DNA of 64,000 nucleotides from Verrucomicrobiia bacterium (GTDB lineage Bacteria; Verrucomicrobiota; Verrucomicrobiia; Palsa-1439), in NCBI GenBank assembly GCA_052146795.1, contig JBKQMH010000151.1:1502-65501 (forward strand), in the 5' to 3' direction. The stretch's first letter is position 1. Each line of letters opens with the position of its first letter. Both the position numbers and the translations under genes were made by a program. The notes beneath the pieces were generated by a model. That model had not been told where the DNA came from. It searched no databases and saw nothing but the letters and a program-made list of their open reading frames with translations. Of this stretch, positions 35,356 to 61,976 are shown piece after piece.

Positions 35356-35677
35356 CGAGTTGTAACAAAGCCCGAGGGTCATTGCCACACCGCCCTGCCA
35401 TTCAACCCCATGCACCGGCTGGACTGCCCCATCAGGAAATCAGGCACCAACCTCGTCGACTGGGTCCACCCTCCAGGCGTTGCGCCCGGGGCAGGCGAAT
35501 AGGTTGGCGCGAGGACCGTTCGTTGACTCTCCGCGATCACAACGCCGAGCGCGGGAGTGAGCGGCATTCGAAATTTGTATGTCGTGCCGGGATAATCCGA
35601 CTCGGCCATGCACGTGCCCGTACCGACTGTGCGGTTGTCGGCGATCGCAACGTTATTCTCGTGACAGTGCATGGTCG

Positions 35678-37048
35678 TCAGTAGGCAAAGGTTTCCAGTT
35701 CATAACGCCCGAGGTGCGGTCGGCCGCGCCGTTCGTTGAATCGAAGGGCCTCGCGGATGGCTTGTTCCTGCGCGCGCATCTGCGCGACGGACAACGACTC
35801 GATCTGTAGCGCGCTGGTTTGTTCGGTGTACCGGCTGTTCGGGTACGTCACCAAGGGCGAAAAATAGATGAAATCATCGCGGCCCAGCGGCAGGTTGTTG
35901 ATCAGGCGCGCCGTCTCCCGCACGTGGGCTTCGGCAAACTCGCGACCGCCAGCACCCAACAGCGCGATCACTCCCACGGTCAGCCCGGCCGTCTTCAGGC
36001 TCGTGACGCATTGGGCGATGCCCTCGCTCGTGGCCGGTTTGCACAGCCACTTCAACAAGTCGTCGTCGCCCGTTTCCAAACCGACATAGACCCGGCGCAG
36101 GCCGAGTTCCCGTAATTCCTCAAAATCGGCGGTGGTACGCCCGGGTCCCGCAAACGCGTCGAGGAACGTGCTCACGCCGTCGAAGCGCGTCTCGTGACCC
36201 AGCCACCAACTGGCGGGAACGTGCTCTTCGGTGTGCGGTGGCAGCTCGAAATGCTCGTGGAGCACGCCAAAGATTTTCACCAAATCCTCGTGTGGCAGGC
36301 TCAGCGCATTGGCCTCACCCAGAAAAATGGAACGTCGTCCCCGCAACGCTTTCCCATGGTATGCAATCGCGTCGGTCACGTGTTTGGCAAACTGGGCGGG
36401 GGTCTTGCGTCCGTAGACCGCGTCGCGATACAACTCGCAGAACAGGCAGCACGAATACGCGCACCCTTCCGTCGCCTGGAGCACGAGCGCGTTGTATTGG
36501 TCGGGCGGAAGCACGGCGACGCGACCGTAAATCGAATGAAATCGTTCCGCATCGCGGCGCGCGGCCGGCTGGTCAAACATCGCGGCGCGTTGCAATGCCG
36601 GCAGGATCTCCGCGAGCGCCTGCCCCGGTCCCGGTTTCGCGTATTCCAACGCGATCGAATTCCCCCGCAATTCGTTCATCACCTGGACAGCCTTCTCGTG
36701 GGCTCCCGTCACCAACGCGTCGGCATCTTCCGTGAGGAGAACGCAACGTTCGATGCCGCCACCCTGTTGGACGGAACGCCGGTGGGTCACCAACACTTGA
36801 TGCGACAGGCCGCGACGTCGATGATGATCGGGCCTCGCGACCTTAGTCAGGCGTCCCTCGAGGTCGTAATGCAACGCCACGTCATTCTCGAAGTAGAGTG
36901 CGAGTTCGAATGCCGAGAGCGCGACGTAGACCCGTTCCCCACCCGACAGGAGCACTTGTAAACCCGCGGTGTAGCGTGGCACCTGCCCGAACGCGAGCGC
37001 CTCCTGGTACTGCAACAGGTTTGTTTTTGTTTCTGCCCCGACTTTCAT
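35678..37048 (-). CDS. Cys-rich hypothetical protein, possible non-canonical radical-SAM-like Fe-S enzyme
   Basis: 456 aa. Cluster EGCAYSCCLFCELY (Cx3CCx2C, not canonical Cx3Cx2C), later GLETGDDD (glycine-rich SAM-site-like). Directly downstream of two SPASM radical-SAM genes. Confidence 0.35.
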   Translation of the reverse strand: MKVGAETKTNLLQYQEALAFGQVPRYTAGLQVLLSGGERVYVALSAFELALYFENDVALHYDLEGRLTKVARPDHHRRRGLSHQVLVTHRRSVQQGGGIERCVLLTEDADALVTGAHEKAVQVMNELRGNSIALEYAKPGPGQALAEILPALQRAAMFDQPAARRDAERFHSIYGRVAVLPPDQYNALVLQATEGCAYSCCLFCELYRDAVYGRKTPAQFAKHVTDAIAYHGKALRGRRSIFLGEANALSLPHEDLVKIFGVLHEHFELPPHTEEHVPASWWLGHETRFDGVSTFLDAFAGPGRTTADFEELRELGLRRVYVGLETGDDDLLKWLCKPATSEGIAQCVTSLKTAGLTVGVIALLGAGGREFAEAHVRETARLINNLPLGRDDFIYFSPLVTYPNSRYTEQTSALQIESLSVAQMRAQEQAIREALRFNERRGRPHLGRYELETFAY

Positions 37049-37071
37049 AAATCAATCTCTCGGTCGCTCCG

Positions 37072-38262
37072 TCAGGCGGTCAACGCCGTCGCCTCGGCAT
37101 AGCCGATTTCCTTGTTGGTCAAATAGCAGGCTGGGTCGGACGCCCACGGATCGCCGTACACCTGCGCCGCCCGGACGCGGAAACTCCCGCCGCAAATGTC
37201 CTGGAACCGGCACTGCCCGCACCGTCCCTTGAGTAACGGCAAGCGGTTCCGCAATTTCGCCAAGAGCGGGATCGAGTTGTCGGACCAAACCTGGCTGAAC
37301 GGCCGCTGCTTCACATTGCCCAGCGTGGCGGCCTGCCAGAACTGGTCGGGATGGACGTTGCCTTGCGTGTCGATATTGGCGATCCCGATGCCCGAGGAGT
37401 TGGCGCCGCCGCCATTCCACTTCATCAATTTGTGGACCTGCTCGGCGCGTTCGGCGTCGCGCTCGCACAGCTTCAAGTACACGTAGGCGTTGTCCGCGTG
37501 GTTGTCGACCGTCAGGATTTCCTTCTTCAACCCTCGTTGATGAAACGACAGGGTACGTTCGAGAATGATGTCCATGGCGCGACGAATCTCCGCCGTCGTC
37601 AACTCGTCGGCGGCGTTGCCGCGACCCGAATACACGAGATGATAAAAGCACGCGCGCTGGATGCCCTCGGCCTCGATGAAGTTGAAAATGTCGTGCAAAT
37701 CCATGCAATTGCGGCGAGTCAGCGTCAGGCGCAAACCAACTTTCTGATCGACCGCGCGACAATTACGCATCCCGCGCACCGCTCCCTCGAATGCGCCCTT
37801 CTTGCCGCGGAAAATATCGTTGGTCTCGCCAATGCCATCCAGCGAGATGCCGACGTACGTGGTGCCGAGTTCCTTGAGCTTCTTCGCCGCGGCTTCATCC
37901 AGTAACGTACCGTTCGTCGAGAGCGTAAGTCGGAGTCCCTTGCCGACGGCATAGCCCATGAGATCGAACAAGTCAGGTCGGGTGAGCGGCTCGCCGCCGG
38001 AAAACAAGACGGCCGGTACTTGGAACACCGCGAGGTCGTCGATCACCCGCAACGCTTCGTCGTGAGTCAGTTCGCCGGGATACTTCTGCGCGTAGCTGTC
38101 CGAGTAACAATGCACGCAACGCAGGTTGCAGGTGCGCGTGACGTTCCACACGACGATCGGACGGCGTTCCGCGGCGGATTTCGGAGCACCCTGGCCATGA
38201 CCGTATCGCAACCCATCGGCGGGCTGCTCTTCACCACAGTAAAGCTTGGTAATGTTGACCAT
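37072..38262 (-). CDS. Radical SAM/SPASM protein, NirJ/AhbC/AhbD family (haem-type tetrapyrrole modification)
   Basis: VVWNVTRTCNLRCVHCY (Cx3Cx2C), LFSGGEPL, C-terminal SPASM cysteines (CGQCRFQDICGG...CY). Confidence 0.7.
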   Translation of the reverse strand: MVNITKLYCGEEQPADGLRYGHGQGAPKSAAERRPIVVWNVTRTCNLRCVHCYSDSYAQKYPGELTHDEALRVIDDLAVFQVPAVLFSGGEPLTRPDLFDLMGYAVGKGLRLTLSTNGTLLDEAAAKKLKELGTTYVGISLDGIGETNDIFRGKKGAFEGAVRGMRNCRAVDQKVGLRLTLTRRNCMDLHDIFNFIEAEGIQRACFYHLVYSGRGNAADELTTAEIRRAMDIILERTLSFHQRGLKKEILTVDNHADNAYVYLKLCERDAERAEQVHKLMKWNGGGANSSGIGIANIDTQGNVHPDQFWQAATLGNVKQRPFSQVWSDNSIPLLAKLRNRLPLLKGRCGQCRFQDICGGSFRVRAAQVYGDPWASDPACYLTNKEIGYAEATALTA

Positions 38263-38287
38263 GACGCTTCCTCCCGGCGTTGCCGCG

Positions 38288-39445
38288 CTACAATGCTTCG
38301 TCCAAAATCTCCTGTTTCCTCATCCGTCGCGGCTCGTAAATGCAGTGTGGCTCTTCCGCCATGTAATTGCCGTGGGTTGCGTAAAATGCCCGGGCACGAC
38401 AGCCGAGACACACTTTTTTGAATTCACACAGCCCGCACTTGCCTTCGAGTTGTTCGACATCGCGCAGGCGACTGAACACTTCCGAGTGCTCCCAAATCTC
38501 CTGCACCGGCTGGTGTTTCACGTTGCCCGCGCTAACGGGCAGATAACCGCACGGGAAAACCTCGCCCGTGTGCGACACGAAGCAAATGGCGCTGCCAGCC
38601 AGGCAGCCCTTCGTCATCGCGGCCATGTTCGGACCGCCGCCATGGCTCGGACGCCCCGGATGACCGTGTCCGGGTTTACCATGGCTGTGCGTGGCCTCGA
38701 TGTGAACATGCTCCACTGTAGCGCGCTGACGCATCACGCGGAAATAATGCGGCGCGCACGTCGCCTTGAGATGAAGAGCGCGCTCCTTGCTCTTGTCGTA
38801 CATCCAGTTGAGCACGCGCTCGTATTCCTCGGCGGGCAGCATGTTCGACTCGGCGATTTGCACCCCGCAGCCGACGGGGACCAGCATGAACAGGTGCAAC
38901 GCGTCTGCGCCAAGTTCCTGGGCGGTGGCATAGAGTGTCTCGATCTGGTGCACATTGTGCCGGGTGACGGTGCAGTTGATTTGCATGCTCATCCCGAGGC
39001 GGCGCAGGTGACGAAAGCCTTTCACCGCCGCCGCCAACGAGCCGGGCTGGCGACGAAAACTGTCGTGTGTGGTCTCGTCGGCGCCATCAATGCTGATCGC
39101 GACGCGTTGGATGCCGCTATCAACAATCGCGTGGGCCATGCGTTCGTCGATGAGCGTCCCGTTGGTGGCCAACGCTACCGCCAACCCTTGGTCGCGCGCG
39201 TGCACCGCGATCTGGAAAATGTCCGGTCGGAAAAGTGGTTCGCCACCGGACAGGACGAGGATGGGTTTGGCAAACGCTGCCAATGCGCGGACAAACAGCA
39301 GCGCTTCCTGGGTGCTAAGATCGTTTTTCATGAGCTGCCGGCTCACGTCGAGACGGCGGCAATGAATGCACTCCAGATTGCAGCCCGCCGTCGTCTCCCA
39401 AAAGAGAAGCCTCAGCTCGTTGTGGTTTTTGGTTTCTGCGACCAT
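38288..39445 (-). CDS. Radical SAM/SPASM protein, NirJ/AhbC/AhbD family (AhbD/haem-synthase-like)
   Basis: LFWETTAGCNLECIHC, LSGGEPL, SPASM (CGLCEFKKVCLGCRARA). Start placed at MVAETKNH (39445) because a sigma-54-like promoter element lies inside the longer track ORF. Confidence 0.7.
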   Translation of the reverse strand: MVAETKNHNELRLLFWETTAGCNLECIHCRRLDVSRQLMKNDLSTQEALLFVRALAAFAKPILVLSGGEPLFRPDIFQIAVHARDQGLAVALATNGTLIDERMAHAIVDSGIQRVAISIDGADETTHDSFRRQPGSLAAAVKGFRHLRRLGMSMQINCTVTRHNVHQIETLYATAQELGADALHLFMLVPVGCGVQIAESNMLPAEEYERVLNWMYDKSKERALHLKATCAPHYFRVMRQRATVEHVHIEATHSHGKPGHGHPGRPSHGGGPNMAAMTKGCLAGSAICFVSHTGEVFPCGYLPVSAGNVKHQPVQEIWEHSEVFSRLRDVEQLEGKCGLCEFKKVCLGCRARAFYATHGNYMAEEPHCIYEPRRMRKQEILDEAL

Positions 39446-39462
39446 AGCCGCAGAATGATTTA

Positions 39463-39477
39463 GCACTGACGGTGCCA
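39463..39477 (-). promoter_or_regulatory. Candidate sigma-54 (-24/-12) promoter, minus strand reads TGGCACCGTCAGTGC
   Basis: GG-N10-GC spacing. Shares TGGCA-N-CTGC architecture with 45310..45324 and 61962..61976. 18 nt upstream of the ATG. Confidence 0.35.
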
Positions 39478-39654
39478 GCACGAGGAAGCGAAGTTCTAAC
39501 TAACGGTGCTGCAATGAACTACGCAGGAAAACACGATGAGGCCTGTGCCCTAAGAACCTGACATTTTGGCAAGATGGCACGAGCCATGTCGACAAGTTGT
39601 CGGCTTGGCCCACTTACTTCAGGAGTGACCGCTGTTTTGGCGCCCCATCTGATA

Positions 39655-41667
39655 CTAGAAGCGGACGCTGCAACTGGCGCTGACCAGATTCGCGACGTAG
39701 TTGTTGAAACCGCCGGTGCTGGACTCGTCGTACGAGTAGAACCCGTAGCGAAGGCGGGCGACCGCATTCTTGCTGATCTTGCGGCTGACGCCTGCCTGAA
39801 CTGCATGGCGTTGGAAATTCAATCCCAGTGGCAGACCGGCGGCGTCGTTGTTGCTGAAATTGTCCGAACACGAGTAGCTGTATTCAAGTGTGAGATCGGT
39901 CTTGTTGTCGATCGCGTAGCCGGTTGTGGCCATGACCGTATACACGTTGCCCCGGTACGTTTGGACGGCGGGGTTTTGATTGACGGGCGTGCTCGTCCGC
40001 GTGTCTTGCAACGAGAAGTAGCCGGTCAGGTACCATCGAGACATCGGCGTGACCGTCGCGCTCACGCTGTAAATATTCAAATCGTAATCGCCCGACTGGA
40101 GTGTGCCGCCGGGCGTAATCACCGGAACAGCTTCCGTGCTGGTGCGGATGTCGGTGGACACGAGCTGGTAGGTGAACGCGACGCTGAACCGCGAGCACGG
40201 GCGCAAGGTCAGTTTGGCCATGGCCTCGTCGGTGGTGAAATCCTGCGCGGTGATGAATCCGGGGTAGCCCACAACGGTGTCGATGGGATAGTCGTAGTCA
40301 TCGTGATCAATGTAATGTCGATAACTGCCGGCCAGCGTCATACGGGACAGCGGTGCGGTGTTGAAGCCAACGCGGTAGTCCTGTCGCAATGTTGTCTCGT
40401 TGGAGTCGACGGCGAGGCTGGAAGCGCCGTCCTCCGTCTCCGTTTGGTCCAAATCGATTTGCTCTTCGTTCCATTGGCCCTCGGCGTAGAGGGTGGTGTA
40501 CGGAATCTTCGTATACCGCATGCCGAGGGTTTCTGAGAGGCTCTCGGTGTTCTCGGACGAACGAATCAGGTTGGTCGTCGCCGCCGAACCGCCTTGTGCG
40601 AGAAGCGCGTCGGTAAAACCGTGCGTATCTGTTTTTTCCGCCTGCAATCCGCCGTAGAGAATGAGGCCCTTGAACGGCCCAAACATGGTATTCAGGTTGA
40701 CCACGTCGGAATCCAACTCAACCCCGATCGCATTGGCCGTCCCGCCGATGTCGAACGGCCCGACCGGCGGCGGGGTACTTACCTGGATGTCGCCGTTACC
40801 GGAGAGCGAGCTGTGCAGATAACCGAGCGACCAATACACCTTGTCATTCACATGGCAGTCCATATGGAACGTATTGTAGAAGGCATCCTGATGATAGTCC
40901 TCGTGAACTGTCACCGTTTGGCTGGAACTCGTGTTCAGGTCTATCGAGGTATCATCGCGCGTATCATCGCTGCCGAAGTGTTCATAGCGGAAGTCGTCCA
41001 ACAGGTGGACCTTGCTAATGTCATAGTCCACGCTCAATTTGACGATATCGGTGTGTTCTTTGATGCCGTCGGTCGAGGGATAAATCTTGCGCGTGTTCGC
41101 GCCCTGCGTGACGCCCCCCCACTCGACCAATGATTCGTCGCCATCCTGTGATTGTCGCTCATAGCCGACGGTGACTTTGGGGAGATTGGGCAAGGTCAGT
41201 CCAGCCTCGAAGAAGATATCGCTGTTATCGATCCGCAGGCCTTGATCCAGACGGAATGACGACGGCGTAAACGGCCCGTAGAAGCCCCCCTGGCTGTCGT
41301 AGTACTCGCGATATTCGGTGTACCCGGTCCGAACAAAACCGAAGTCCCGTTTCGTCAATTGTAACTGGAATTTGTAGTCGTGCTCATCAATGATAAACCG
41401 GCCTTCGCCATCGAGCGTCGTGTCTTTGTTGAGATCGTAATGCAGCGTTCCATCCTCAACGCCGCCGTTCCAGCCCGGCTCGATCCCGAGGTCTTCGCGG
41501 AATTTCTGGGCATTGCCGGACACCTTCGCATACGTCACCTCCGGCGTCCCGGACAACTGGATCGGCGAATTGGTTTGCGAATCATCGCCCCGGGCAGCGG
41601 CGAGCGTCATCAGTCCCAGCGGGAGGGTAACGAGGAGCACTTTGTAGAAGGTGTATTTCATCACCAT
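39655..41667 (-). CDS. Large outer-membrane beta-barrel of a porin-cytochrome conduit (MtrB/OmbB-like by context)
   Basis: 670 aa, signal peptide, alternating-hydrophobic strand pattern throughout, C-terminal ...SCSVRF. Immediately downstream of two multihaem cytochromes. Confidence 0.55.
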   Translation of the reverse strand: MVMKYTFYKVLLVTLPLGLMTLAAARGDDSQTNSPIQLSGTPEVTYAKVSGNAQKFREDLGIEPGWNGGVEDGTLHYDLNKDTTLDGEGRFIIDEHDYKFQLQLTKRDFGFVRTGYTEYREYYDSQGGFYGPFTPSSFRLDQGLRIDNSDIFFEAGLTLPNLPKVTVGYERQSQDGDESLVEWGGVTQGANTRKIYPSTDGIKEHTDIVKLSVDYDISKVHLLDDFRYEHFGSDDTRDDTSIDLNTSSSQTVTVHEDYHQDAFYNTFHMDCHVNDKVYWSLGYLHSSLSGNGDIQVSTPPPVGPFDIGGTANAIGVELDSDVVNLNTMFGPFKGLILYGGLQAEKTDTHGFTDALLAQGGSAATTNLIRSSENTESLSETLGMRYTKIPYTTLYAEGQWNEEQIDLDQTETEDGASSLAVDSNETTLRQDYRVGFNTAPLSRMTLAGSYRHYIDHDDYDYPIDTVVGYPGFITAQDFTTDEAMAKLTLRPCSRFSVAFTYQLVSTDIRTSTEAVPVITPGGTLQSGDYDLNIYSVSATVTPMSRWYLTGYFSLQDTRTSTPVNQNPAVQTYRGNVYTVMATTGYAIDNKTDLTLEYSYSCSDNFSNNDAAGLPLGLNFQRHAVQAGVSRKISKNAVARLRYGFYSYDESSTGGFNNYVANLVSASCSVRF

Positions 41668-41674
41668 GGCTCCG

Positions 41675-42481
41675 TCAATACCGCAGGTGCGCGTTAATGT
41701 CCGAACCGTGAACGGCCGTGTGACAACCCGCGCTGAAACAGGTGCCCTGTTCTAGGAAGCTGGTGGGCGCAAACCCGGCGTGCGGCATGTTCCCGATCGA
41801 TACGACGCCGGGCAGGGTGGGCGAGGCCACCTGCGCGTGGCACTTCAGGCACAGATTATTGTCGCGCTCGGTCAACATCTTCGGGTTGATCGAGCCGTGC
41901 ACGTTGTGGCAAGAGGTGCACCCTTCGCGCATCGCCTCATGCTCGTAGACGTGCGGCCGGGCCTGCTCGCGATGGCATTGCGCGCAATCCTCGTTCACGC
42001 GGCCGACCAGCATGCCCTTCGGTTTGAGAATGTCTTCGCCATGCGGATCGTGACAGGAGATGCAACTCATCCGCCCTTCCTTGACGGGATGATGGTATTG
42101 GAGACTAAACTCGGCGTTCTTATCGAGATGGCACTGGAAACACGCCTCGGGACTCTTGCCGGGGTTGACGATCAGTTTGCGGTCCCCGCCCGAATCCACA
42201 TGTAAACTGCCGGGACCGTGGCAACTCTCGCATCCTTGCCCTTCCACACGCGGTCCCTCGCCGGGAATCTGGATTCGCGCGTGCTCCGTAAGCTTGAAGT
42301 TCTTCACTTCCTTCTCGTGGCACAACGCGCATTGATCCATGCCGACGTACTTGGCGCCCGGAATCATCGGCGGGGCAAGAACCACCCGATCCACCGTCGC
42401 GCAGGAGATGATCAATGCGGCCAACGCGGCGCCACCGATGGCTGCGACTGTTACCGCAGTTGAGGATCGTGGGCTATTCAA
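41675..42481 (-). CDS. Periplasmic multihaem cytochrome c (7 CxxCH + 1 Cx4CH), lipoprotein-like signal
   Basis: CALCH, CESCH, CFQCH, CISCH, CAQCH, CTSCH, CLKCH, CFSAGCH. Signal with ...LIISC. Confidence 0.8.
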   Translation of the reverse strand: MNSPRSSTAVTVAAIGGAALAALIISCATVDRVVLAPPMIPGAKYVGMDQCALCHEKEVKNFKLTEHARIQIPGEGPRVEGQGCESCHGPGSLHVDSGGDRKLIVNPGKSPEACFQCHLDKNAEFSLQYHHPVKEGRMSCISCHDPHGEDILKPKGMLVGRVNEDCAQCHREQARPHVYEHEAMREGCTSCHNVHGSINPKMLTERDNNLCLKCHAQVASPTLPGVVSIGNMPHAGFAPTSFLEQGTCFSAGCHTAVHGSDINAHLRY

Positions 42482-42592
42482 GGATCACCTCTGGTACCAA
42501 TCTCTGCCTGCGAAGGGTCGGGCGGCCGCCTTCGACGACTTGCGTCCTCTGAGCCGCCGCCCGTGTCGAAACCCGCGCCATCGCGCCCACTC

Positions 42593-45280
42593 CTACCGGA
42601 GGACGGCGTACGGATAGGCGTTCGTGTACGTCCTGGTCACGTCATTGTAAAAGTTCGTGCTCAGATCGGTGTAGGTCGTTTGCAACAGGCGGATGGTGAA
42701 CTGCGAGTTGTGCACGCCCATGCTGCCTTCGAAATACTCCAGATTCCAATTCCAAGCGGCCTTGCGTTGCGCTGCCGTCAAAGCTACATTGTTGGTGGAA
42801 TAGCCGCCGCCGAAATAAATAGTGCTTCCATGCGCGATGGTATTGGAGAGACCCGTCGCGTACATCAGGGTCGCCAGATTGTTCAACAGTCCCTGCGTTT
42901 GCGTCTGGATGCCTTCGATCACGCCATTCGTATTGCCGTCATAATTTTGGAAGTTCGCCGCCTGATAGTCGAAGTTAGTGACCGGCCCGAAGCTCCCGTG
43001 GCACTGGTTGCACGCGGCAATGTTCTCCACCACATTGGTCATACCATTCGTGCCCACATATTGGTACGTCATCTCAAACGTGTGGGAGCCCAGCACGTTC
43101 GCATAGGTGGCAAGGTTGTTTGCCGTGATCACAACCGGCGCGTCATTGACGAGGATCGTGTCACCCGCCTTGAGTGAATACATATGGCATTCTTGGCAGC
43201 TCGCCAGGTACGTGTGGAAAGAATTCCCCATCTCCTGGCCATAATCGCAGGCGCCCAAGCCGGCGAACATTTCGCCAGCGGTGCTCATGTCCGGTGTAGT
43301 TGTCTGGTAGAACATCTGATTGGTACCGGAGCCGCTGACCTGGATTTGCGTCGGCCACATTCGCTCATTGTGGCAGACCATGCAGGCCGCGGACAAACCA
43401 GCATTGGTCACGGTGACGGTGCTGTTGGTCAACGCCAGATTCGCCGTGGTCAGGCTGTCGCCGAGGCCGATGCGAACCGTCGGGCTGTTCGTCAGTAGCG
43501 GGTTGCCCAATTGGACGGTGTCATAAACCCGCAATTGGTGGCGCGCCGAATCGGGCGCATTGCCGAAGTTGCTATGCGGATCGTGGCAGACCTGGCAGGT
43601 CAACGGCCCGGTGCCCAGGGCCACCGCGGTCAAGCCCGCCGCGTTGGTGATGGCGGCGGCGACCTGGTTCGTCGCGACGCTGATAAAGGCAGCGGGCGAA
43701 TGGCATCGCGCGCAGCCTGAATTGTTGCCCTCTGAATCGGATATGCTCTCAAACGCTCCCGCGTGCGGCGAAATCTCCCATTGCTGGACATTGACTTCCT
43801 CGGTGCCGCTCTGGTGGCAGCTCGAGCAGACCTTCTCATTCAGGCTGACGGACGGCGAACCCGGATGCTGGCTGCCGGGACCGTGGCAGTTTTCGCACTG
43901 GATGTTGGCCAGATTCTGGAGCTGAGCGGGCATCAACGCGTAGTTGCCCGCTTGGAGCACGGTGGGGAAATTCCAGCCAAGTTGTTGTTGGACAGCATAG
44001 AAATTGCCGTTGGCCGCCGCCGCCGGTGATTGGTTGAAGCCGACGGTATGGCATTGGAAGCAAGACTCGTTGTAATGCGAGGAGAGGACTCCGTCCACCC
44101 CGCGCTGGGCCATCGTCGCATGCCCCGTCCCTTGCCACGGCGTAACCATATCGGCCAGACCGACCAGGTTGCCCGGGCCATGGCAGATCGCGCAGAACTC
44201 CACACCGGTCCAGCTGGCCGCCGTGTTGGTGACAGTCTGGCCCGTGACATTGTCCTGAATCACGTATATGCCCTGGACGTCAGGCCGCAACGCAGCGATC
44301 AAACCATTGGTGTGTGTAAGGGCGGCGACGGAACCAGCAGGCTTGGACACGAGTGACCAGTTCATGCTATTGGTCGCCCCCTTATAAAAGGCGGTTACGC
44401 CTGCCGGAATATTCGGTTGTGCGGGCGTCTGGACGGAACACGCCACCGTGAAAACCCCGGTGCGTGTGACCGAGCCATTGCTGACGAGCACTTGGAAGCC
44501 GTACGTGGCTGCGCCCGCCTCTTCGTTGTCAAGGGAAATGCCGCTGGCAGCGCCAAACCGATGTTCTGGCGGCACATACGGTTGATTCGTGTAAACGCCG
44601 GCGGTGTGAAAGTCGATAGTGTTCACGAAGGGTGCTGTCGTCGTGGCCATATCCACGAAGTTCGTCAGCGCATCCGTGGTGAAACTGGTCGAGACAGCGC
44701 CGTTGGCGCTCAGCGCAACCGTCTTGCCGCTGGTCTGGCTCCAGGTGTACGTCAGCGTCCCTGCCAGGCCACTGGTGGGGACGATCGAGCCGTCCAGCGT
44801 TACCGAGTTTTCGAATCCCACATCGTAGAGGTTTGTCGTCACAGTCAGAGACCCCGACGGAACGGCGTTGGTGACGGAGGTGATGGTAACGTGCAATGTC
44901 TTTGAGCCGATGTTCTTGCGGTCAAAAGTCGCGGTCACGTGCACAGTCGCAACGCCAACGAAGTTGGTGGGGATGAGAACCGATGTGCCCGACACGTTCG
45001 TACTGGCGCCAACCGGCGGGTTGGTAATGGTGAGCACGGGGAACTTCGTCGTCCGGAATTTTTTGCCGCTGACCGTGGCCTTGACGACCAACGGACCCGT
45101 GTTGGTCACGACATTCAAATCGAACTGGTAGCTGAGCGTGCCTCCCGACACGATGGTCCCGGCAGCTGAGACAGTCCCAAGCTTGGCGGCAGCAGGCGCG
45201 GCGTGTGTTTGCAAAGCGACCATGGTAGACAGTGCGACGACCAGCGCACCGACTCGTTTCAGAAAATGTGTTCCCGTCAT
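42593..45280 (-). CDS. Large secreted/surface multihaem cytochrome c (9 CxxCH) with N-terminal beta-rich (Ig-like) region
   Basis: Signal peptide, ~330-aa Thr/Val-rich N-terminal region, then CAICH, CFQCH, CENCH, CSSCH, CARCH, CQVCH, CMVCH, CQECH, CNQCH. Confidence 0.8.
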   Translation of the reverse strand: MTGTHFLKRVGALVVALSTMVALQTHAAPAAAKLGTVSAAGTIVSGGTLSYQFDLNVVTNTGPLVVKATVSGKKFRTTKFPVLTITNPPVGASTNVSGTSVLIPTNFVGVATVHVTATFDRKNIGSKTLHVTITSVTNAVPSGSLTVTTNLYDVGFENSVTLDGSIVPTSGLAGTLTYTWSQTSGKTVALSANGAVSTSFTTDALTNFVDMATTTAPFVNTIDFHTAGVYTNQPYVPPEHRFGAASGISLDNEEAGAATYGFQVLVSNGSVTRTGVFTVACSVQTPAQPNIPAGVTAFYKGATNSMNWSLVSKPAGSVAALTHTNGLIAALRPDVQGIYVIQDNVTGQTVTNTAASWTGVEFCAICHGPGNLVGLADMVTPWQGTGHATMAQRGVDGVLSSHYNESCFQCHTVGFNQSPAAAANGNFYAVQQQLGWNFPTVLQAGNYALMPAQLQNLANIQCENCHGPGSQHPGSPSVSLNEKVCSSCHQSGTEEVNVQQWEISPHAGAFESISDSEGNNSGCARCHSPAAFISVATNQVAAAITNAAGLTAVALGTGPLTCQVCHDPHSNFGNAPDSARHQLRVYDTVQLGNPLLTNSPTVRIGLGDSLTTANLALTNSTVTVTNAGLSAACMVCHNERMWPTQIQVSGSGTNQMFYQTTTPDMSTAGEMFAGLGACDYGQEMGNSFHTYLASCQECHMYSLKAGDTILVNDAPVVITANNLATYANVLGSHTFEMTYQYVGTNGMTNVVENIAACNQCHGSFGPVTNFDYQAANFQNYDGNTNGVIEGIQTQTQGLLNNLATLMYATGLSNTIAHGSTIYFGGGYSTNNVALTAAQRKAAWNWNLEYFEGSMGVHNSQFTIRLLQTTYTDLSTNFYNDVTRTYTNAYPYAVLR

Positions 45281-45309
45281 AAATGGTTGTCCTCCATCTC
45301 CCTGCTATG

Positions 45310-45324
45310 GCAGTGGACGTGCCA
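45310..45324 (-). promoter_or_regulatory. Candidate sigma-54 promoter, minus strand reads TGGCACGTCCACTGC
   Basis: TGGCACG-N4-CTGC with GG-N10-GC spacing, 30 nt upstream of the cytochrome ATG (GGAGG SD between). A sigma-54-dependent regulator is encoded immediately upstream. Confidence 0.5.
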
Positions 45325-45626
45325 AGGTCATCGTCCAATTCTGTAAGCGTGGCGCTGACAGCTACTTACTTGAAACGGCATGCTGGCACAAGACAATAAA
45401 TCACTGGAAGCTGCGCGGATTCGCTCAAAGAAATGCGTGCTTCCGCGCAACAGGACATCAACGCGCCAACCCAATGGCACCGCTTTCAACGGTTTTCGGG
45501 GCAGAACCGGCACACGGCACGAGCAGTGCTAAGCCGATAACGGTATGCTCACAGGCAGGACGTTGGGACTCGTGCTCGCGCTGATCGGGGTGATCGTAAT
45601 CGCCCTGTCAGCGGTCGTGATCTACT

Positions 45627-47027
45627 TCAGCACTTCGCCGCGCTGAGTTCGCTGGTCGTCGCGGCCAGATACCCGTACTTGATCAACCGGCGACGTAACG
45701 CGTCGCGCTCGATCCCCAGCAATTCCGCCGCGTGACACTGGTTGGCGCCGGCGCGTTCCATCGCCTGGTAAATCAATTCGCGTTCCACCTCCGCCAGTGC
45801 CACACCACCGGGGGGCAATTGAATGAGGGAATGTCCATTCAACCGCGTGCCCAGCCGCAGCTCCGTCGGCAGGTGTTCGGGCAGCACCACCTCGGCTCGC
45901 TCGAGGATGACCAGCCGCTCGATAACGTTGCGCAACTCGCGCACGTTGCCCGGCCATGCGTACTGCTGCAGCATCGTGGCGGCTTCCGCCGAAAGTTTCT
46001 TGATTGGCCTGTTGAACTCCTCAGAAAACCGAGCGAGGTAATGTTCCGCCAGCAACGGGATGTCTCCCGCTTGTTCGCGCAAGGACGGCATCCGCAGCGA
46101 AATGACCTTGAGCCGATAGTACAAATCCTGTCGGAATTCTCCCTTGGCCACGGCCTCCTCAAGGTTCTTGTTGGTCGCGGCGATCACACGCACATCCACG
46201 GAGATGTTTTGCGTGCCTCCGACGCGTTGAAACTCTCGCGACTCCAACACCCGCAGCAATTTCGCCTGCAGCGCGGGTTTCATGTCACCGACCTCATCGA
46301 GCAACACCGTGCCGCCGTCCGCGAGTTCAAATAGCCCCCTCTTGGTATTCTTCGCGTCGGTGAACGCGCCGCGCTCATGTCCGAACAACTCGCTTTCGAT
46401 GAGCGCGTCCGGAATTGCCGAGCAGTTGATCCCCATGAACGGCTGATTGGCCCGCGCGCTGCCGAAATGAATCGCGCGCGCCGCCAACTCCTTGCCCGTC
46501 CCGTTCTCGCCGTCGATGAACACCGTCGTGGCGTCGCTCTCGCCGACCCGCGCAATCAACTCTCGCACCTGGCGCATCTGCGGACTCACCCCGACAAGGT
46601 TTTCCAAGCCGAACTTGCGGCGTTGCGCGCGGCGGATGCGCGTGACTTCCCGACGCAGTTTCAAGTCCTCGCGCGCCTTTTCCAGCGCCACGCGCACTTC
46701 GTCAAACTCGAACGGCTTGCACAGATAATTGTACGCGCCGAGCCGCACGCATTCGACGGCGCGCGCGATCGACGTTTCCGCGGTCAACATGATGACGGCG
46801 ATGTCGCGCTCCAGATTCCTGATCTCTTGCAGCACTTGTACGCCGTCGATTCCCGGCAATCGTAAATCCAGCAGCACCAGGTCGAAACCGTCCTCGCGGA
46901 TGAGGTTCAGTCCCTCCTCGCCCGTCGGCGCCGATTCGACCTCGTAGCCTTCGCGGCCCAGCTTTTGTTGAAGTGACCAACGTACGAGTTTCTCGTCGTC
47001 GATAATGAGTATCTTAGTTCTCGACAT
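45627..47027 (-). CDS. Sigma-54-dependent response regulator (NtrC family)
   Basis: Receiver (ILIIDDE), AAA+ sigma-54 activation domain (GESGTGKE-like FIDGENGTGKE, GAFTDA), C-terminal HTH. Confidence 0.9.
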   Translation of the reverse strand: MSRTKILIIDDEKLVRWSLQQKLGREGYEVESAPTGEEGLNLIREDGFDLVLLDLRLPGIDGVQVLQEIRNLERDIAVIMLTAETSIARAVECVRLGAYNYLCKPFEFDEVRVALEKAREDLKLRREVTRIRRAQRRKFGLENLVGVSPQMRQVRELIARVGESDATTVFIDGENGTGKELAARAIHFGSARANQPFMGINCSAIPDALIESELFGHERGAFTDAKNTKRGLFELADGGTVLLDEVGDMKPALQAKLLRVLESREFQRVGGTQNISVDVRVIAATNKNLEEAVAKGEFRQDLYYRLKVISLRMPSLREQAGDIPLLAEHYLARFSEEFNRPIKKLSAEAATMLQQYAWPGNVRELRNVIERLVILERAEVVLPEHLPTELRLGTRLNGHSLIQLPPGGVALAEVERELIYQAMERAGANQCHAAELLGIERDALRRRLIKYGYLAATTSELSAAKC

Positions 47028-48540
47028 GAGCGAATTCCTTCCGTGTTTCCATTCCGCCTGGCGACGCAATCATCTCGGGTTTGCAAACGGCCAACTCCAG
47101 GGTAATTGTCGTTCCTTTTCCCGGCTCGCTATCCACCGCGATGGTGCCGTGGTGCTTCTCAATGATCGTGCGGGTGATCGACAGTCCGAGGCCTGTGCCG
47201 CGATGTTTCGTGGTGAAAAATGGGGAGAAAATCTTGGCGAGATGCTCGCGCGCAATCCCAACTCCTGTGTCCCGCACCCGGATGCGGACAATGCCGCCGC
47301 CATCGCGCTTGGCTGATTCTGTGGAGACGGTGAGCGTCCCGCCGCCGGGCATGGCCTGAACGGCGTTAAGCAGGATGTTGAGCAGTGCCTGCTGCATTTG
47401 CCCCGGATCGGCGAAGATGTGCGGCAGATCGGCGGCCAACCGCTCCTCGATTTTGATATGAAACTTCTGGGCGTCGGGCCGTACCAGCGCGAGCATCGGC
47501 CGGATGAATCCGTGCACGTCGCAGGGCGCCATCTCCGGATCACGGAGCCGCGCGAATTCGAGAAGATCGTGCAGCGTGCGGTTGAGCCGGGTGATCTGGC
47601 GATGAATCTCAGCGACGATTTCGGCCCGCTGGCCGTTGAGGTTGTTCTCTTCCGATAACACCTCCACCGCCGCGCCGATTCCGGCAAGCGGATTACGAAT
47701 TTCGTGCGCGATGCCCGAGGCCAGCTCGCCGATCGATGCCAGCTTGCCGGCTTGCTGGATTTGCTTCTGATGCGATTCCTCAAGTTCCCGCGTGGCGTTG
47801 TCGAGGCTTTGCACCATCGCGTTAAAACCGCTGGCGAGTTCGCCGATTTCATCCCCGGTCTCGGTCACCGCTCGGGCGTCGAGGTCGCCCGTTTGCACTT
47901 TGCGCATCTGTTCGAGTACGCGGCTGACGGGCTGCGTGACGAGCCGCACAATGAGCAGCCACAGCACGATGCCGACCAGCACGAAAATCACCACCCCGTA
48001 CACGATCAGCAGATTGCGGTTGCTGGCGACGCTGGCCTCGGCGGGGGCGAGTGATTTCTCCACGACGATGGCGCCGATGACGGCGGATTTCGGATCGTGG
48101 CAACGCTGGCAACTCTCGCTGTTGAGCACCGGCCGCATCACCACGGAGAGCCGCTGGCCGTCCTCGACGCGGGTGCCCTGCAACACCTGATTTTCGGTGA
48201 ACAACTCCGGCGGCACCGACATCACCGCGCGTTGCACCTCCTGCGTGTCGGTCGAGAACACCACCGTGCCGTCGGGTTTGATGAGGCGTCCGCGCCAAAT
48301 CTCGTCCGCGCCCTTTAGCTTTTGCAGGAACCCCTGCACCTCTTCATGGCGTTCGCTGAGCATGACGCCGTTGAGGTACTCGTGGACGAGCGACGCGGCG
48401 ATCAGGTTTTGCGCCTGGGTGCGCTCGTGCCACCACGCGCTCTGCACGCGAATGACAAAGTACGTGTAGATCGCAATCACCACGGCAACCGTCACGCCGA
48501 CCGCAACCAACATTTTCGCGGTGAGGTTGCGTCTAAACAT
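47014..48540 (-). CDS. Sensor histidine kinase with periplasmic haem-c (CxxCH) sensor domain
   Basis: TM-periplasmic domain-TM-HAMP-HisKA (AHEIRNPL)-HATPase (GTGLGLSI). The periplasmic segment contains CQRCH (nt 48097..48111). Confidence 0.8.
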   Translation of the reverse strand: MFRRNLTAKMLVAVGVTVAVVIAIYTYFVIRVQSAWWHERTQAQNLIAASLVHEYLNGVMLSERHEEVQGFLQKLKGADEIWRGRLIKPDGTVVFSTDTQEVQRAVMSVPPELFTENQVLQGTRVEDGQRLSVVMRPVLNSESCQRCHDPKSAVIGAIVVEKSLAPAEASVASNRNLLIVYGVVIFVLVGIVLWLLIVRLVTQPVSRVLEQMRKVQTGDLDARAVTETGDEIGELASGFNAMVQSLDNATRELEESHQKQIQQAGKLASIGELASGIAHEIRNPLAGIGAAVEVLSEENNLNGQRAEIVAEIHRQITRLNRTLHDLLEFARLRDPEMAPCDVHGFIRPMLALVRPDAQKFHIKIEERLAADLPHIFADPGQMQQALLNILLNAVQAMPGGGTLTVSTESAKRDGGGIVRIRVRDTGVGIAREHLAKIFSPFFTTKHRGTGLGLSITRTIIEKHHGTIAVDSEPGKGTTITLELAVCKPEMIASPGGMETRKEFAHVEN

Positions 48541-49819
48541 GGCCGCTCGCCTCCATCGGGCCGATTACCCTCACATGCTCCGTCGCAGACGCGTGCGAGT
48601 GGCCGCCAATATCCGGATGCTCGAACAACGGCAGGTAACGCGCCGCCAACCCGAAGAGTACGACCCCAAACGAAAGCAGATTCAGTACGACGGTGATCTC
48701 AATCCATGACGGGAAGTAGTTCGAGTGGGTCGCCGGCAACAGGCCGATCCAGGCGACGTTGAGCCGATTCAGGTTAACCCCCAGGATGACGGGAATCGCC
48801 GCGGCAAACGCCCAGCGCCGACGGCCCGACCATCGCGTCTTCAGCACCACGAACAATGGCAGCGTCAGCAGCAGCATCTCCAGGGTGAACGTGAAACCCT
48901 GAAGCGGGCAGCGGAATATATACATCCACGCATTCCGCGCCGTGAGATCCGCGATGCGGAGAAACAGATAGAGAAACAGTAGCGGCGTCATCCCCTTGGC
49001 CAGCGACGTGAGCACGCGCGGTTCCAGCGGCTTGTGGAATATCCAGAACGACAAGGCGGACACGAAGATCGCCATCGCAAAACCAGAAATGAGCGCGCTA
49101 ATGAAGAACAGGATCGGCAGTAGCGGCGTATACCACAGCGGCAACAGCTTGGTGGGTAGAATGAGGAACAGTGAGCCGAGCGACGACTGGTGCAACGTCG
49201 AGAGGATTACGCCGCAAATGACAAAGGGGACGGTGATCGCGTGTACGGCACGTGACACGCGCGTCCAGCCCAGTTTATCGAGCAGGATCGGCGCGAACTC
49301 CACGGACAGCACGCCCGTGTAGAGCATGACGCACCAGGACACTTCAAACAGTACCGAGTGATGTTGCCAGTAGAAGATCGGTCGCCAGATTTGGTGGTAT
49401 CGACCGAGATCGACGAGCAACGCGCCGGAGGCCGACAGCATGTAGCCGAGATACGCAGCCAGAACCACCGGCCGAAGGATCGGGTAAAACGTGCGGATGC
49501 GAAAGATATACACCATGCACGCCGTGAGGAACCCGCCCGCCGCAAAGGCGATTCCGCAGACAACCAACGCTTTCCAGATGCCCCATGGAAATTGATCGGT
49601 AAGATTCGTCACCGCGCCGAGGCCCAGTGCATACCGTGAGGTGAACCCGTAACCTCCCAGACCCCAGAGCACGATCAGCAATGACCAGCCAAATACGCCC
49701 GACAGGTGCTTGGGAGTTTGACGGCCGGAGAGCAACCAGCAAGCGAACACCGCACCGCACATCATGACCAAGACGCCGATGACGCGGAACAATGCCAGGA
49801 TCCAGTTAAAATCGTTCAT
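48533..49819 (-). CDS. NrfD/PsrC-family integral membrane quinone-interacting subunit (module A)
   Basis: Start at MNDFNWIL. About 10 TM segments; paralog of 51574..52878 (DQFPWGIW, YWQHHSVLFEV). Confidence 0.7.
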   Translation of the reverse strand: MNDFNWILALFRVIGVLVMMCGAVFACWLLSGRQTPKHLSGVFGWSLLIVLWGLGGYGFTSRYALGLGAVTNLTDQFPWGIWKALVVCGIAFAAGGFLTACMVYIFRIRTFYPILRPVVLAAYLGYMLSASGALLVDLGRYHQIWRPIFYWQHHSVLFEVSWCVMLYTGVLSVEFAPILLDKLGWTRVSRAVHAITVPFVICGVILSTLHQSSLGSLFLILPTKLLPLWYTPLLPILFFISALISGFAMAIFVSALSFWIFHKPLEPRVLTSLAKGMTPLLFLYLFLRIADLTARNAWMYIFRCPLQGFTFTLEMLLLTLPLFVVLKTRWSGRRRWAFAAAIPVILGVNLNRLNVAWIGLLPATHSNYFPSWIEITVVLNLLSFGVVLFGLAARYLPLFEHPDIGGHSHASATEHVRVIGPMEASGHV

Positions 49820-50673
49820 GGCCGCTCCGTCGGGTTCCGTGTCCGCCAGCGAACCACCGCGCTCAGGACCAAGCCGACACCGATGACCACAAATGGCACC
49901 TTCGAAATGGCCTTCCACGTCAGCGATGGCAGCGGATCCTTTGGCAGGCCGCGCGGGAACCCGAGATCTTCCGGCGCGGTATCGGACAAGTACAACCACG
50001 ATGTGCCACCGGCAACGTCTTCGCCGTATAGCGACGTGTAGCGGTTCGGTTGCGTGTCCAGCCGGGCCTTCGCCTCCTGCAACAACTCGCGGCGTTTCCC
50101 AAACTTCAGCGTGACGGTCGGACACGCGGCGACGCAGGCCGGGGATTGGCCTTTCGCCTGACGGTCGGCGCAGAAATCACATTTGGCGACGCGCGGCATG
50201 AACGCGTTGTTCCACTCGTACTTCGGCACACCGAACGGACAGGCCAGAATGCAGTAGCGGCAGCCGATACAGATGCTCTCGTTGTAAACGACCGGCCCGC
50301 TCGCGGTCTTCTCCAATGCCCCGACGGGGCAGACCGACACACACGCCGGGTCCAGGCAGTGCATGCATTGCCGTTTCACCGGCTGTTTGGGTTTCGTGTT
50401 CCCGTCCCGGAAATCGATGAACGTCCGCGTGCGAAAACTCAGTTTGCCGTCGCCGGCGCCGTAACCAATTGCTTCGGTGGGAAGGGCATCGAAGCCCGCT
50501 CGTACCCGGCAGGCGTTCTCGCAGGCCCGGCAGCCGATGCAGCGCGTGAGGTCCACCAAGACGCCGGCCGATGCTGACGGCTCAACCGGCGATTCCGCGA
50601 GAAGGGCGCGAGCAGACGCGATCGTCAACGCGCCGGTCGCCGCGGTCTTGAAGAATTGTCGACGGGAAATCAT
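49816..50673 (-). CDS. Tat-exported 4x[4Fe-4S] ferredoxin subunit (NrfC/PsrB/HybA-like) with C-terminal TM anchor (module A)
   Basis: MISRRQFFK twin-arginine signal. Four Cys clusters (CIGCRACENAC, CMHCLDPACVSVCP, CIGCRYCILACP, CDFC...CVAACP). Confidence 0.85.
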   Translation of the reverse strand: MISRRQFFKTAATGALTIASARALLAESPVEPSASAGVLVDLTRCIGCRACENACRVRAGFDALPTEAIGYGAGDGKLSFRTRTFIDFRDGNTKPKQPVKRQCMHCLDPACVSVCPVGALEKTASGPVVYNESICIGCRYCILACPFGVPKYEWNNAFMPRVAKCDFCADRQAKGQSPACVAACPTVTLKFGKRRELLQEAKARLDTQPNRYTSLYGEDVAGGTSWLYLSDTAPEDLGFPRGLPKDPLPSLTWKAISKVPFVVIGVGLVLSAVVRWRTRNPTERP

Positions 50674-51587
50674 CGCGGCGGCTCCCCGTGTTTCTTTCGG
50701 CGGAAATGCGGCAACGCGACGCCCAGAAAAATGCCCAACAGGAACGACAGGCCGACCACGGGCGGAAACACGCGGCGGTTGGCCGCGAGTATCTCGCGCA
50801 ATTTGGCGGTTTCCGTTTCCAACTCAGTGAGACGCGCCTCGAGTTTTTCCGGTGCGACCGCTTTGAGTCGGTGGACCTCTTCTTCTAGCGTGGCGTTTTC
50901 GTGGCTCGCGTGCACCATATCGCGGTGGCAATTGGCGCAGGTCTCGGCACCGACGCCGAACGTGTGGCCGCGCACGCCGAGGCCGCGGGTCTTCATACCG
51001 ACGCCCTTCACCTCGGGCATGTGACAGCTCAGGCAGTGCAGGCCTTCAATCGCGTGGGTCGCATGGGAGAAGTCCTTGAGCCGTTCCGTGTGGCAGGTGC
51101 CGCACATTTGGTCGGGCTGGTCTTTGTGCAGTTGCATCCCATGCATCTTGTGGCAATCGAAACAGCGGATGTTCTTCTGGCCGTGCGCACTGACCCGCCA
51201 TTCGCCATAGGTAATGGCATGGCAGCTTTGGCACACTTCGGACGTGACGGGCAGCGTCAACTTCGATTTGTCCGGGTGATCGTCCTTCATGACGCCGTGG
51301 CAGGACTCGCAACTGACACCGTCATGCGAAACCTTGCCCGATTTCGGGTCGGACCGGCTGGTGTGGCAGACGAGGCATTCCCATTTCTTGCCCTCGGTCG
51401 TCCACTCGTTCAGGAACATGTCGTTTATCGTTTGGGCGTGGGGCGAGCCCTGCCAATCCTTCACCTCCTGCTCGTGGCACAGCGCACACCGCTCGGATTC
51501 TTTCTCTTCACCCTGTGCGCGCACGGCGGTCGGCACGAGTGCCAGCACGGCTGCAAGGACAATCACGGTTTGTCTAGGAAGACACAT
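50670..51587 (-). CDS. Octahaem cytochrome c with C-terminal TM anchor (module A)
   Basis: 8 CxxCH in ~250 aa; coiled-coil then hydrophobic helix at the C-terminus. Confidence 0.85.
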   Translation of the reverse strand: MCLPRQTVIVLAAVLALVPTAVRAQGEEKESERCALCHEQEVKDWQGSPHAQTINDMFLNEWTTEGKKWECLVCHTSRSDPKSGKVSHDGVSCESCHGVMKDDHPDKSKLTLPVTSEVCQSCHAITYGEWRVSAHGQKNIRCFDCHKMHGMQLHKDQPDQMCGTCHTERLKDFSHATHAIEGLHCLSCHMPEVKGVGMKTRGLGVRGHTFGVGAETCANCHRDMVHASHENATLEEEVHRLKAVAPEKLEARLTELETETAKLREILAANRRVFPPVVGLSFLLGIFLGVALPHFRRKKHGEPPR

Positions 51588-53737: not shown

Positions 53738-53838
53738 TCCCCCGGGGTGGTCATTCTGAGCGCGGGGAAGAAGCTTTGGATCGCCTCCCTTGTGGGGATC
53801 TTCGCTTCGGTCAGGGTGAAAGACTGGAAAAGCGGCGT

Positions 53839-61961: not shown

Positions 61962-61976
61962 GCAGTGGCCTTGCCA
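61962..61976 (-). promoter_or_regulatory. Candidate sigma-54 promoter, minus strand reads TGGCAAGGCCACTGC
   Basis: 13/15 identical to the element at 45310..45324, 31 nt upstream of the resB ATG. Confidence 0.45.

Follow-up and report, generated by a model that had tools for sequence, protein, structure and literature searches.

A predicted porin–cytochrome conduit with an MtrAB-like core and a sigma-54-type control region in a Verrucomicrobiia genome of the Palsa-1439 lineage

The closest described counterparts of the locus reported here come from Verrucomicrobia of bogs and peat. Bog Verrucomicrobia were found, in their metagenome-assembled genomes (MAGs), to encode a new type of porin with 20 or more strands beside a periplasmic cytochrome whose eight haem sites are conserved; an extracellular multihaem cytochrome was often present, and electron transfer to humic substances was proposed (He et al. 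2017, PMC5615132). A cluster named "EET3" was described for the order Palsa-1439, with multimer and structural models and with core genes transcribed in deep anoxic peat, in a recent preprint (Fiorito et al. 2026, bioRxiv 10.64898/2026.05.27.727921). Here, a stretch of 64,000 nucleotides from a Verrucomicrobiia bacterium of the Palsa-1439 lineage (assembly GCA_052146795.1, contig JBKQMH010000151.1, positions 1,502 to 65,501; hereafter the window) was analyzed, in which three consecutive genes are predicted to encode an outer-membrane conduit of this kind.

The three open reading frames (ORFs) lie on the minus strand in the order cytA, cytB and barrel. The first, cytA (42593..45280), encodes an 895-amino-acid (aa) secreted nonahaem cytochrome; cytB (41675..42481, TTG start) encodes a 268-aa octahaem cytochrome of the MtrA/DmsE superfamily, and barrel (39655..41667) a 670-aa predicted outer-membrane beta-barrel of about 26–28 strands that opens with a signal peptide and has F as its last residue. 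Their identification as an outer-membrane porin–cytochrome conduit with an MtrAB-like core is supported by the evidence given below; the fuller reading, in which an MtrAB-like wire is joined to an OcwA-type outer cytochrome, fed from quinol, run outwards and placed under sigma-54 control, is considered likely. A Verrucomicrobiia MAG at NCBI contains the window proteins with 100% identity, annotated there as "hypothetical proteins".

EET3 shares with the window the gene order, the haem counts (nine; seven plus one non-canonical), partial matches to the UshA-like NF041198 and to TIGR03508, the porin match to 6R2Q_B, and the lineage, and no difference from the window conduit is apparent in the EET3 core. 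All three genes by which the two earlier descriptions are recognized, for a secreted nonahaem cytochrome, an octahaem DmsE/MtrA-like cytochrome and a large MtrB-like porin of at least 20 strands, are found in the window. The conduit core is already known as a prediction (He et al. 2017; Fiorito et al. 2026). Added here to the EET3 descriptions are a predicted sigma-54 promoter with upstream sites, a divergent sigma-54-like promoter with a 33-aa peptide, a haem-c kinase, the lipobox of cytB, candidate quinol dehydrogenases, and ResB/CcsA; the accessible parts of the two texts contain no mention of sigma factors, a kinase, a lipoprotein signal, a small peptide, ResB, NrfD or FeoB.

Among experimentally solved systems, the likeness to MtrCAB of Shewanella (6R2Q) lies in the gene order (outer cytochrome, periplasmic cytochrome, barrel), in the homology of cytB to MtrA, and in the 26-strand MtrB as the nearest structure to the barrel. 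The porin–cytochrome complexes of Geobacter sulfurreducens (OmaB-OmbB-OmcB, Ext) combine, as here, an octahaem periplasmic partner with a porin and an outer cytochrome; for the periplasmic cytochrome and the porin, compared by description, only the haem count (8) agrees. CbcL-like quinol dehydrogenases are common to G. sulfurreducens and the window.

The barrel family is large, comprising 1143 representatives (one per 50%-identity cluster) in an exhaustive search with E up to 0.001. When a single genome of each species was searched with this family, 47 loci were obtained, mostly from Verrucomicrobiia MAGs of peat, palsa and bog sites, the remainder from Desulfuromonadales, Desulfobacteraceae, Lentisphaerales and other bins; synteny was read in the 36 loci with enough sequence. 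In every one of these (36/36) an octahaem gene of about 270 aa (seven CXXCH and one CX4CH) stands directly before the barrel gene, which makes cytB-barrel the invariant core, and a nonahaem gene of 800–950 aa precedes cytB in most of the Verrucomicrobiia loci among them; the full order cytA-cytB-barrel is kept in the majority of the 36. A palsa_1439 MAG (locus L010) carries a syntenic orthologue of the conduit with 74% identity in the barrel, and syntenic orthologues in this, SPRUCE and other bog MAGs agree with a Palsa-1439-type lineage of peat and humic waters. The tripartite porin–cytochrome architecture that the original prediction had read from the window's letters is borne out by this synteny across 36 loci, together with the homology of cytB to MtrA and the resemblance of the barrel model to MtrB.

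The product of cytB contains seven CXXCH motifs and one CX4CH motif (CFSAGCH) at residue 248, and a lipobox, LIIS-C27; Cys27 and all eight haem motifs are invariant in 35 of 35 aligned sequences. It had been described beforehand as a lipoprotein-type cytochrome with 7(+1) haems, and both parts of that description hold. The residue after the lipobox Cys is Ala, which by the sorting rule for lipoproteins of E. coli directs a protein to the outer membrane; the rule may not hold for Verrucomicrobiota. In the PDB, cytB matched MtrA (6R2Q_A, E 1.2e-29), with its CX4CH aligned on the last CXXCH of MtrA by way of a two-residue insertion. The best NCBIfam match was NF041028, the GSU2203 family (E 1.5e-50; 172 bits, below the cutoff of 325), besides TIGR03508, the DmsE family (E 1.2e-45; 156 bits, below the cutoff of 192.2). 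Judged by sequence, cytB is clearly homologous to MtrA/DmsE, yet with eight haem motifs and a sub-threshold score it lies outside the decahaem family by the curated cutoff. From MtrA itself, which is not known to be a lipoprotein, cytB differs in having eight haems instead of ten, CX4CH as the last motif, and a lipobox. The protein after which the GSU2203 family is named is OmcK of Geobacter, up-regulated with iron oxides according to the literature. The preprint characterizes the systems as convergent and "entirely divergent in sequence" (Fiorito et al. 2026, 10.64898/2026.05.27.727921); for cytB this wording is too strong, given an E-value of 1e-29 to MtrA in the sequence comparison.

The barrel protein has no CXXCH motif and ends in ...SVRF. 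Its AlphaFold (AF2) model (mean predicted local distance difference test score, pLDDT, 82.5) is all-beta and contains some 27 long strand elements, corresponding to roughly 26–28 strands, so that the 670-aa beta-barrel ending in F that had been anticipated was recovered and not a soluble, non-barrel fold. When the model was compared with known structures, MtrB gave the top match and the longest alignment, the same 6R2Q_B match as for the EET3 porin. No match to PDB sequences was found at E up to 10, with the single protein or with a 47-sequence profile, and none in Pfam or NCBIfam. PF11854 (MtrB_PioB) gave no match for the barrel itself, which in this respect differs from MtrB in lying below detection by that model, and weak matches in 4 of 47 relatives (best E 5.9e-5); the distant relative P0260 reached 22.1 bits against a cutoff of 23. 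Because the barrel itself has no sequence match, its link to MtrB rests on the fold and on these faint matches in relatives. An NCBIfam scan of ten distant barrel relatives was uninformative.

As a separate observation, a monohaem domain of the Planctomycete cytochrome C (PSCyt1) type, about 130 aa long, is found at the N-terminus of 56 of the 59 long relatives within the top 149. These fused relatives (P0257-P0298 and similar; loci L041, L044 and L047) represent a fused cytochrome-porin that is reminiscent of Cyc2 but has a much larger barrel.

The product of cytA has exactly nine CXXCH motifs, kept in 50 of 54 aligned sequences, and no CXXCK motif. It begins with a type-I signal peptide, followed by three immunoglobulin (Ig)-like beta-sandwich domains (residues about 30–355), a haem domain (360–761) and a helical C-terminal region; in the model (mean pLDDT 78) the N-terminal beta-sandwiches match Ig, FN3 and PKD folds. 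The nine haems and the Ig-like N-terminus of the original prediction were therefore confirmed, as was the expectation that both cytochromes carry signal sequences (type I in cytA, lipoprotein-type in cytB). Of the description as a "surface 9-haem cytochrome", the haem count and the export signal stand; placement at the cell surface is a proposal, and no lipobox was found in cytA that would provide a lipid anchor.

The family profile of cytA matched OcwA (6I5B) in the PDB with E 6.6e-11, and the modelled haem domain appears structurally closest to octahaem nitrite reductase and NrfA. In Pfam, PF22113 was matched with 48.4 bits, a match that spans generic haem-packing motifs; in NCBIfam there was a partial match to the UshA-like NF041198 (61.4 bits) and none to TIGR03507, the MtrC/OmcA decahaem family. 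The haem domain is of the OcwA/NrfA type and not of the MtrC type: unlike the decahaem lipoproteins MtrC and OmcA, cytA has nine haems and no lipid anchor, and unlike the outer cytochrome of the Geobacter complexes it is not a dodecahaem lipoprotein. With OcwA of Thermincola potens, a nonahaem terminal reductase of the cell surface, cytA shares nine haems and profile-level homology; relative to OcwA, a protein of about 500 aa in a Gram-positive cell wall, cytA has some 330 additional N-terminal residues, a helical C-terminal extension, and a linked barrel. For the nonahaem protein, structural matching was uninformative according to the preprint (Fiorito et al. 2026, 10.64898/2026.05.27.727921), whereas the haem domain of the window protein is identified here as an OcwA homologue. 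The family alignment contains only eight conserved non-motif His residues for nine haems, and one haem may therefore lack a distal His and have an open or non-His sixth position. In this family, moreover, the Met that follows the eighth motif (CQECHM) never varies, and the extreme C-terminus, P-x-A-x-L-R, hardly does; taken with the His shortfall, these features could reflect a haem site left open and a signal for docking or sorting.

A sigma-54-type −24/−12 element, TGGCACGTCCACTGC, lies at 45310..45324 on the minus strand, 29 nt before the cytA ATG at 45280, with a GGAGGA ribosome-binding site between the two. The reference pattern is TGGCAC-N5-TTGC (−24 GG, −12 GC), with which the element agrees in spacing and placement. 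It had been listed in the original prediction as TGGCACG-N4-CTGC at 30 nt, and apart from that single nucleotide the assignment stood. The motif by itself is not above chance in the window (2 found, 0.94 expected); a strict match is positioned 27–30 nt before the nonahaem ATG in 20 related loci, and these account for 20 of the 44 matches in 784 kb on both strands. Because this position is conserved across loci, and not by its count in the window, TGGCACGTCCACTGC was accepted as a promoter element. In an 18-locus alignment of the intergenic region between cytA and the activator gene next to it, TGGCA and TGC are invariant and the flanks variable; the −12 element is CTGC in the window and TTGC in others. 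Four blocks are conserved in this alignment, namely the −24/−12 element, the ribosome-binding site, a pair of palindromes, and an element on the opposite strand.

The tandem 16-bp palindromes, TGCGCGGAAGCACGCA and TGAGCGAATCCGCGCA, at 45434-45449 and 45412-45427, have the form TGCGCG-N4-CGCGCA, with centres 22 bp apart, and are located about 90–125 nt upstream of the −24 element; judged by their sequence and position, they are probable binding sites of the activator (upstream activating sequences, UAS). A one-mismatch copy of this UAS-like palindrome, TGCGCGTGTTCGCGCC, is also present inside the barrel coding sequence (41088-41103). The element on the opposite strand, GGCACGAGCAGTGCT (45516..45530, plus strand; GG-N10-GC), is sigma-54-like and divergent, and lies 14–15 nt before the ATG of a 33-aa ORF; it is kept in 18 of 18 loci, with 19 sites once the window is included and two of them in locus L022. 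The palindromes are therefore placed between two divergent sigma-54-type promoters, those of cytA and of the small peptide.

The 33-aa ORF (45545..45646, plus strand) encodes a single-transmembrane peptide, MLTGRTLGLVLALIGVIVIALSAVVIYFSTSPR, with one hydrophobic helix. It recurs in 25 instances, and the differences between pairs at the three codon positions (0.36, 0.205 and 0.496) follow the pattern of a coding sequence under selection; no match was found in Pfam. If transcription starts at the customary distance from the −12 element, the leader of its mRNA would comprise only a few nucleotides (nearly leaderless). The 3' end of the gene overlaps the stop of the activator gene, and two copies are present in locus L022.

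Some further candidates were not retained. A second strict sigma-54 motif of the window, TGGCATCGCGGTTGC (56800-56814, minus strand), belongs to the 3'-terminal coding sequence of the first CbcL-like gene and was judged to be due to chance; it is about 75 nt before the ATG of the next gene, which overlaps the preceding stop (ATGA). Sigma-54-like matches just after the barrel gene in some loci fall within the coding start of ahbD and are absent from the window, and were not taken as promoters. Scans for terminators and sigma-70 promoters between 33 and 46 kb gave results at or below shuffle expectation.

Adjacent to this region, as stated in the original prediction, is a gene for an NtrC-type response regulator and sigma-54 activator (45627..47069, minus strand), with receiver, AAA+ and HTH_8 domains (Sigma54_activat, 230 bits), which adjoins the conduit in about 20 loci; the putative sigma-54 promoter of the conduit is thus accompanied by both an adjacent activator and a conserved palindrome pair. 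The sigma-54 contact loop of the activator (residues about 238–243) reads GAFTDA in 21 of 21 orthologues. It is followed upstream by a sensor histidine kinase gene (47014..48540, minus strand), with HAMP, HisKA and HATPase_c domains, whose product is assigned as a haem-c-containing sensor because of a CQRCH motif in its periplasmic stretch and a match to PF21563 (33 bits). The kinase had been called "haem-sensing": the covalently bound haem is upheld by the motif and the domain match, and the motif does not show that haem is what is sensed. From its sequence, the haem-c kinase is plausibly a redox sensor and the likely switch of conduit expression.

The conduit is part of a larger island, in which the genes between about 63.0 and 33.0 kb are all co-directional and follow in the order tetrahaem cytochrome; ResB, HemA and CcsA; two CbcL-like proteins; HmcBC-like modules; kinase; activator; conduit; Ahb; and feoAB. 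Many Verrucomicrobiia loci share synteny over the block that runs from an octahaem cytochrome (described below) to feoB; in loci L014 and L016, ResB, HemA (L016 only), CcsA and a CbcL-like gene are followed directly by the conduit. The genes upstream of the kinase, all on the minus strand, include candidates for electron entry. A 201-aa secreted tetrahaem c554-like cytochrome (62195..62800) is a candidate periplasmic shuttle. Two CbcL-like inner-membrane proteins (54756..58930), each with 11 CXXCH motifs fused to a cytochrome b561/HydC-type domain, are candidate quinol dehydrogenases, and two HmcB/HmcC-like modules (48533..54559; a 4Fe-4S protein with an NrfD-type membrane protein, by Pfam and NCBIfam) are candidate quinol:cytochrome oxidoreductases, with a 305-aa octahaem cytochrome (8 CXXCH) encoded between them. 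The second HmcB-like iron-sulfur protein (52871-54559) is 562 aa as the longest ORF, and its N-terminal residues, about 275, have no family match; this part may reflect a wrongly set start or an additional domain. At the window edge, immediately upstream of the island, a cytochrome b6/ExtP-like gene (63026-63997, minus strand) appears to be a fusion of b6 and subunit IV.

Genes for cytochrome maturation, haem synthesis and iron uptake are also represented. CcsA, HemA (glutamyl-tRNA reductase) and ResB (58902..61931, minus strand; Pfam) correspond to System II maturation and the first step of haem synthesis. The preprint states that most ccm genes are absent in these Verrucomicrobiota and suggests an uncharacterized maturation route (Fiorito et al. 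2026, 10.64898/2026.05.27.727921); System II (ResB, CcsA) within the island would explain maturation without ccm genes. Downstream of the conduit, AhbD-like, AhbC/NirJ1-like and third radical-SAM proteins are encoded at 35678..39481 (minus strand; TIGR04545 437.6 bits, TIGR04054 548 bits, both below cutoff), which by sequence would represent an alternative, oxygen-independent haem synthesis. These are followed by feoA (35071-35415, minus strand; PF04023 FeoA, 53 bits) and feoB (minus strand, stop at 33068; TIGR00437, 517 bits, above cutoff) for ferrous iron uptake. The placement of feoAB and haem-biosynthetic radical-SAM genes downstream of the conduit in the original prediction is in line with these matches. 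A 97-aa ORF at 35379-35672 was rejected as FeoA in favour of the 35071-35415 frame. The sole match of an Rfam scan of the window was a tRNA (6495-6566, minus strand), far from the conduit.

Elements resembling those of the conduit control region recur in the island. A sigma-54-like site, TGGCACGTAAGTTGT (62829-62843, minus strand; −12 element TTGT), lies 28 nt before the tetrahaem gene, with a palindrome pair of the same 22-bp spacing at 62932-62969 upstream of it; in the stretch 61962-62050 (minus strand), a single copy of the TGCGCG-N4-CGCGCA palindrome (62035-62050) is found about 60 nt upstream of the sigma-54-like TGGCAAGGCCACTGC, which precedes resB. In L014 and L016, too, a sigma-54-like site precedes the tetrahaem orthologue, at a distance of 39 nt. 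The recurrence of palindromes and sigma-54-like sites suggests an island-wide regulon.

From these features a mechanism can be proposed. The lipid-anchored cytB would be attached to the inner leaflet of the outer membrane and thread the approximately 26-strand barrel as an insulated haem wire, for which the barrel is proposed as the sheath. Its C-terminal CX4CH haem would face outwards and its N-terminal lipid would remain on the periplasmic side, an orientation that agrees with MtrA in 6R2Q, whose N-terminus points inwards. Outside, cytB would pass electrons to cytA, proposed as the cell-surface outlet, with its haem domain carried on the three Ig-like domains, and cytA would in turn deliver them to acceptors outside the cell, for example Fe(III) or humic or particulate organic matter. 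Electrons from the quinol pool would enter through the two CbcL-like proteins and the two HmcBC-like modules, and the small tetrahaem cytochrome would ferry them across the periplasm. Transcription of cytA-cytB-barrel would start at the sigma-54 promoter, the adjacent NtrC-type regulator acting from the two upstream palindromes after phosphorylation by the kinase with the periplasmic c-type haem.

Several points weigh against this proposal. Lacking a lipid anchor or an identified secretion signal, cytA may be located in the periplasm, and a figure legend in the preprint places the modelled EET3 cytochrome there (Fiorito et al. 2026, 10.64898/2026.05.27.727921). The GAFTDA loop of the activator departs from the canonical GAFTGA, and the −12 element of the window is CTGC instead of TTGC; the former is a caveat for sigma-54 control. 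Sequence does not reveal which way the electrons flow; only context separates iron respiration from iron oxidation or humic reduction, and conduit function rests on prediction in every organism. Outward flow is favoured, though not proved, by the outer cytochrome, by the oxygen-independent haem pathway, and by the transcripts of such clusters reported from deep anoxic peat.

The same components might be run in the opposite direction, such that extracellular Fe(II) or reduced humics would be oxidized and electrons delivered to the periplasm and quinone pool, as has been proposed for MtoAB and PioAB. Mtr-type wires are reversible in principle, the superfamily of cytB (MtrA/MtoA/PioA/DmsE) includes iron oxidizers, feoAB is nearby, and CbcL- and MtoC-type proteins are grouped together in the literature. 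However, MtoAB and PioAB are described in the literature as lacking an outer cytochrome, whereas a large and conserved one related to a terminal reductase is encoded here; the haem pathway is of the anaerobic Ahb type; and expression of related clusters comes from peat that is deep and anoxic, a setting with no evident oxidant for Fe(II) oxidation. Inward flow is for these reasons considered unlikely.

It is quite unlikely that cytA serves mainly as a catalyst on a soluble substrate (nitrite, hydroxylamine, sulfite or similar) in the way of NrfA, ONR or OcwA, with barrel and cytB only supplying electrons or with no single complex being formed. The structural proximity of its haem domain to octahaem nitrite reductase and NrfA, the possibly open or non-His sixth position left by eight conserved His for nine haems, and the reduction of oxyanions by OcwA as summarized in Fiorito et al. 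2026 would fit such a role; the missing CXXCK motif speaks against it, and since cytA is strictly linked to a pair resembling MtrA and MtrB, a function across the outer membrane is favoured.

A role in iron acquisition, by which insoluble Fe(III) reduced at the surface would feed FeoAB and meet a high demand for iron and haem, would account for feoAB and haem-synthesis genes being co-directional and syntenic with the conduit in many loci, and the kinase could then sense iron or redox state. Four candidate quinol oxidoreductase systems in the island are out of proportion for assimilation alone, though, feoB is missing in several conduit-bearing loci, and a supply chain for making about 60 haem sites would account just as well for the haem, iron and maturation genes, so that this role appears very improbable. 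That the barrel is an unrelated transporter or polysaccharide-export-associated porin beside cytochrome genes, as its missing family match and a weak EpsL match in one relative might suggest, can be given hardly any weight, since it stands directly after cytB in all loci examined, has no plug domain or TonB box, resembles MtrB most closely and over the longest alignment, and has a cytochrome domain fused to it in 56 of the 59 long relatives.

Peat and humic waters store a large share of soil carbon, and the excess of CO2 over CH4 released there is thought to require an unidentified electron sink. Clusters of this type, transcribed in deep peat, are the leading candidate for respiration of humic or particulate organic matter by abundant uncultured Verrucomicrobiota. 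The details added here, i.e. a defined putative sigma-54 promoter and enhancer, a haem-c kinase, a predicted lipid-anchored MtrA homologue, an OcwA-type cytochrome and the System II maturation genes, make this candidate easier to test. A further idea, put forward tentatively and held to be more doubtful than probable, is that the island of about 30 kb forms one sigma-54 regulon under the periplasmic haem-c redox kinase, with a shared enhancer firing two divergent promoters and with the 33-aa peptide either feeding back on the kinase in an MgrB-like manner or acting as a subunit of the electron-transfer machinery so far overlooked. If this were true, the periplasmic redox state would switch on extracellular respiration as a unit in uncultured peat bacteria.

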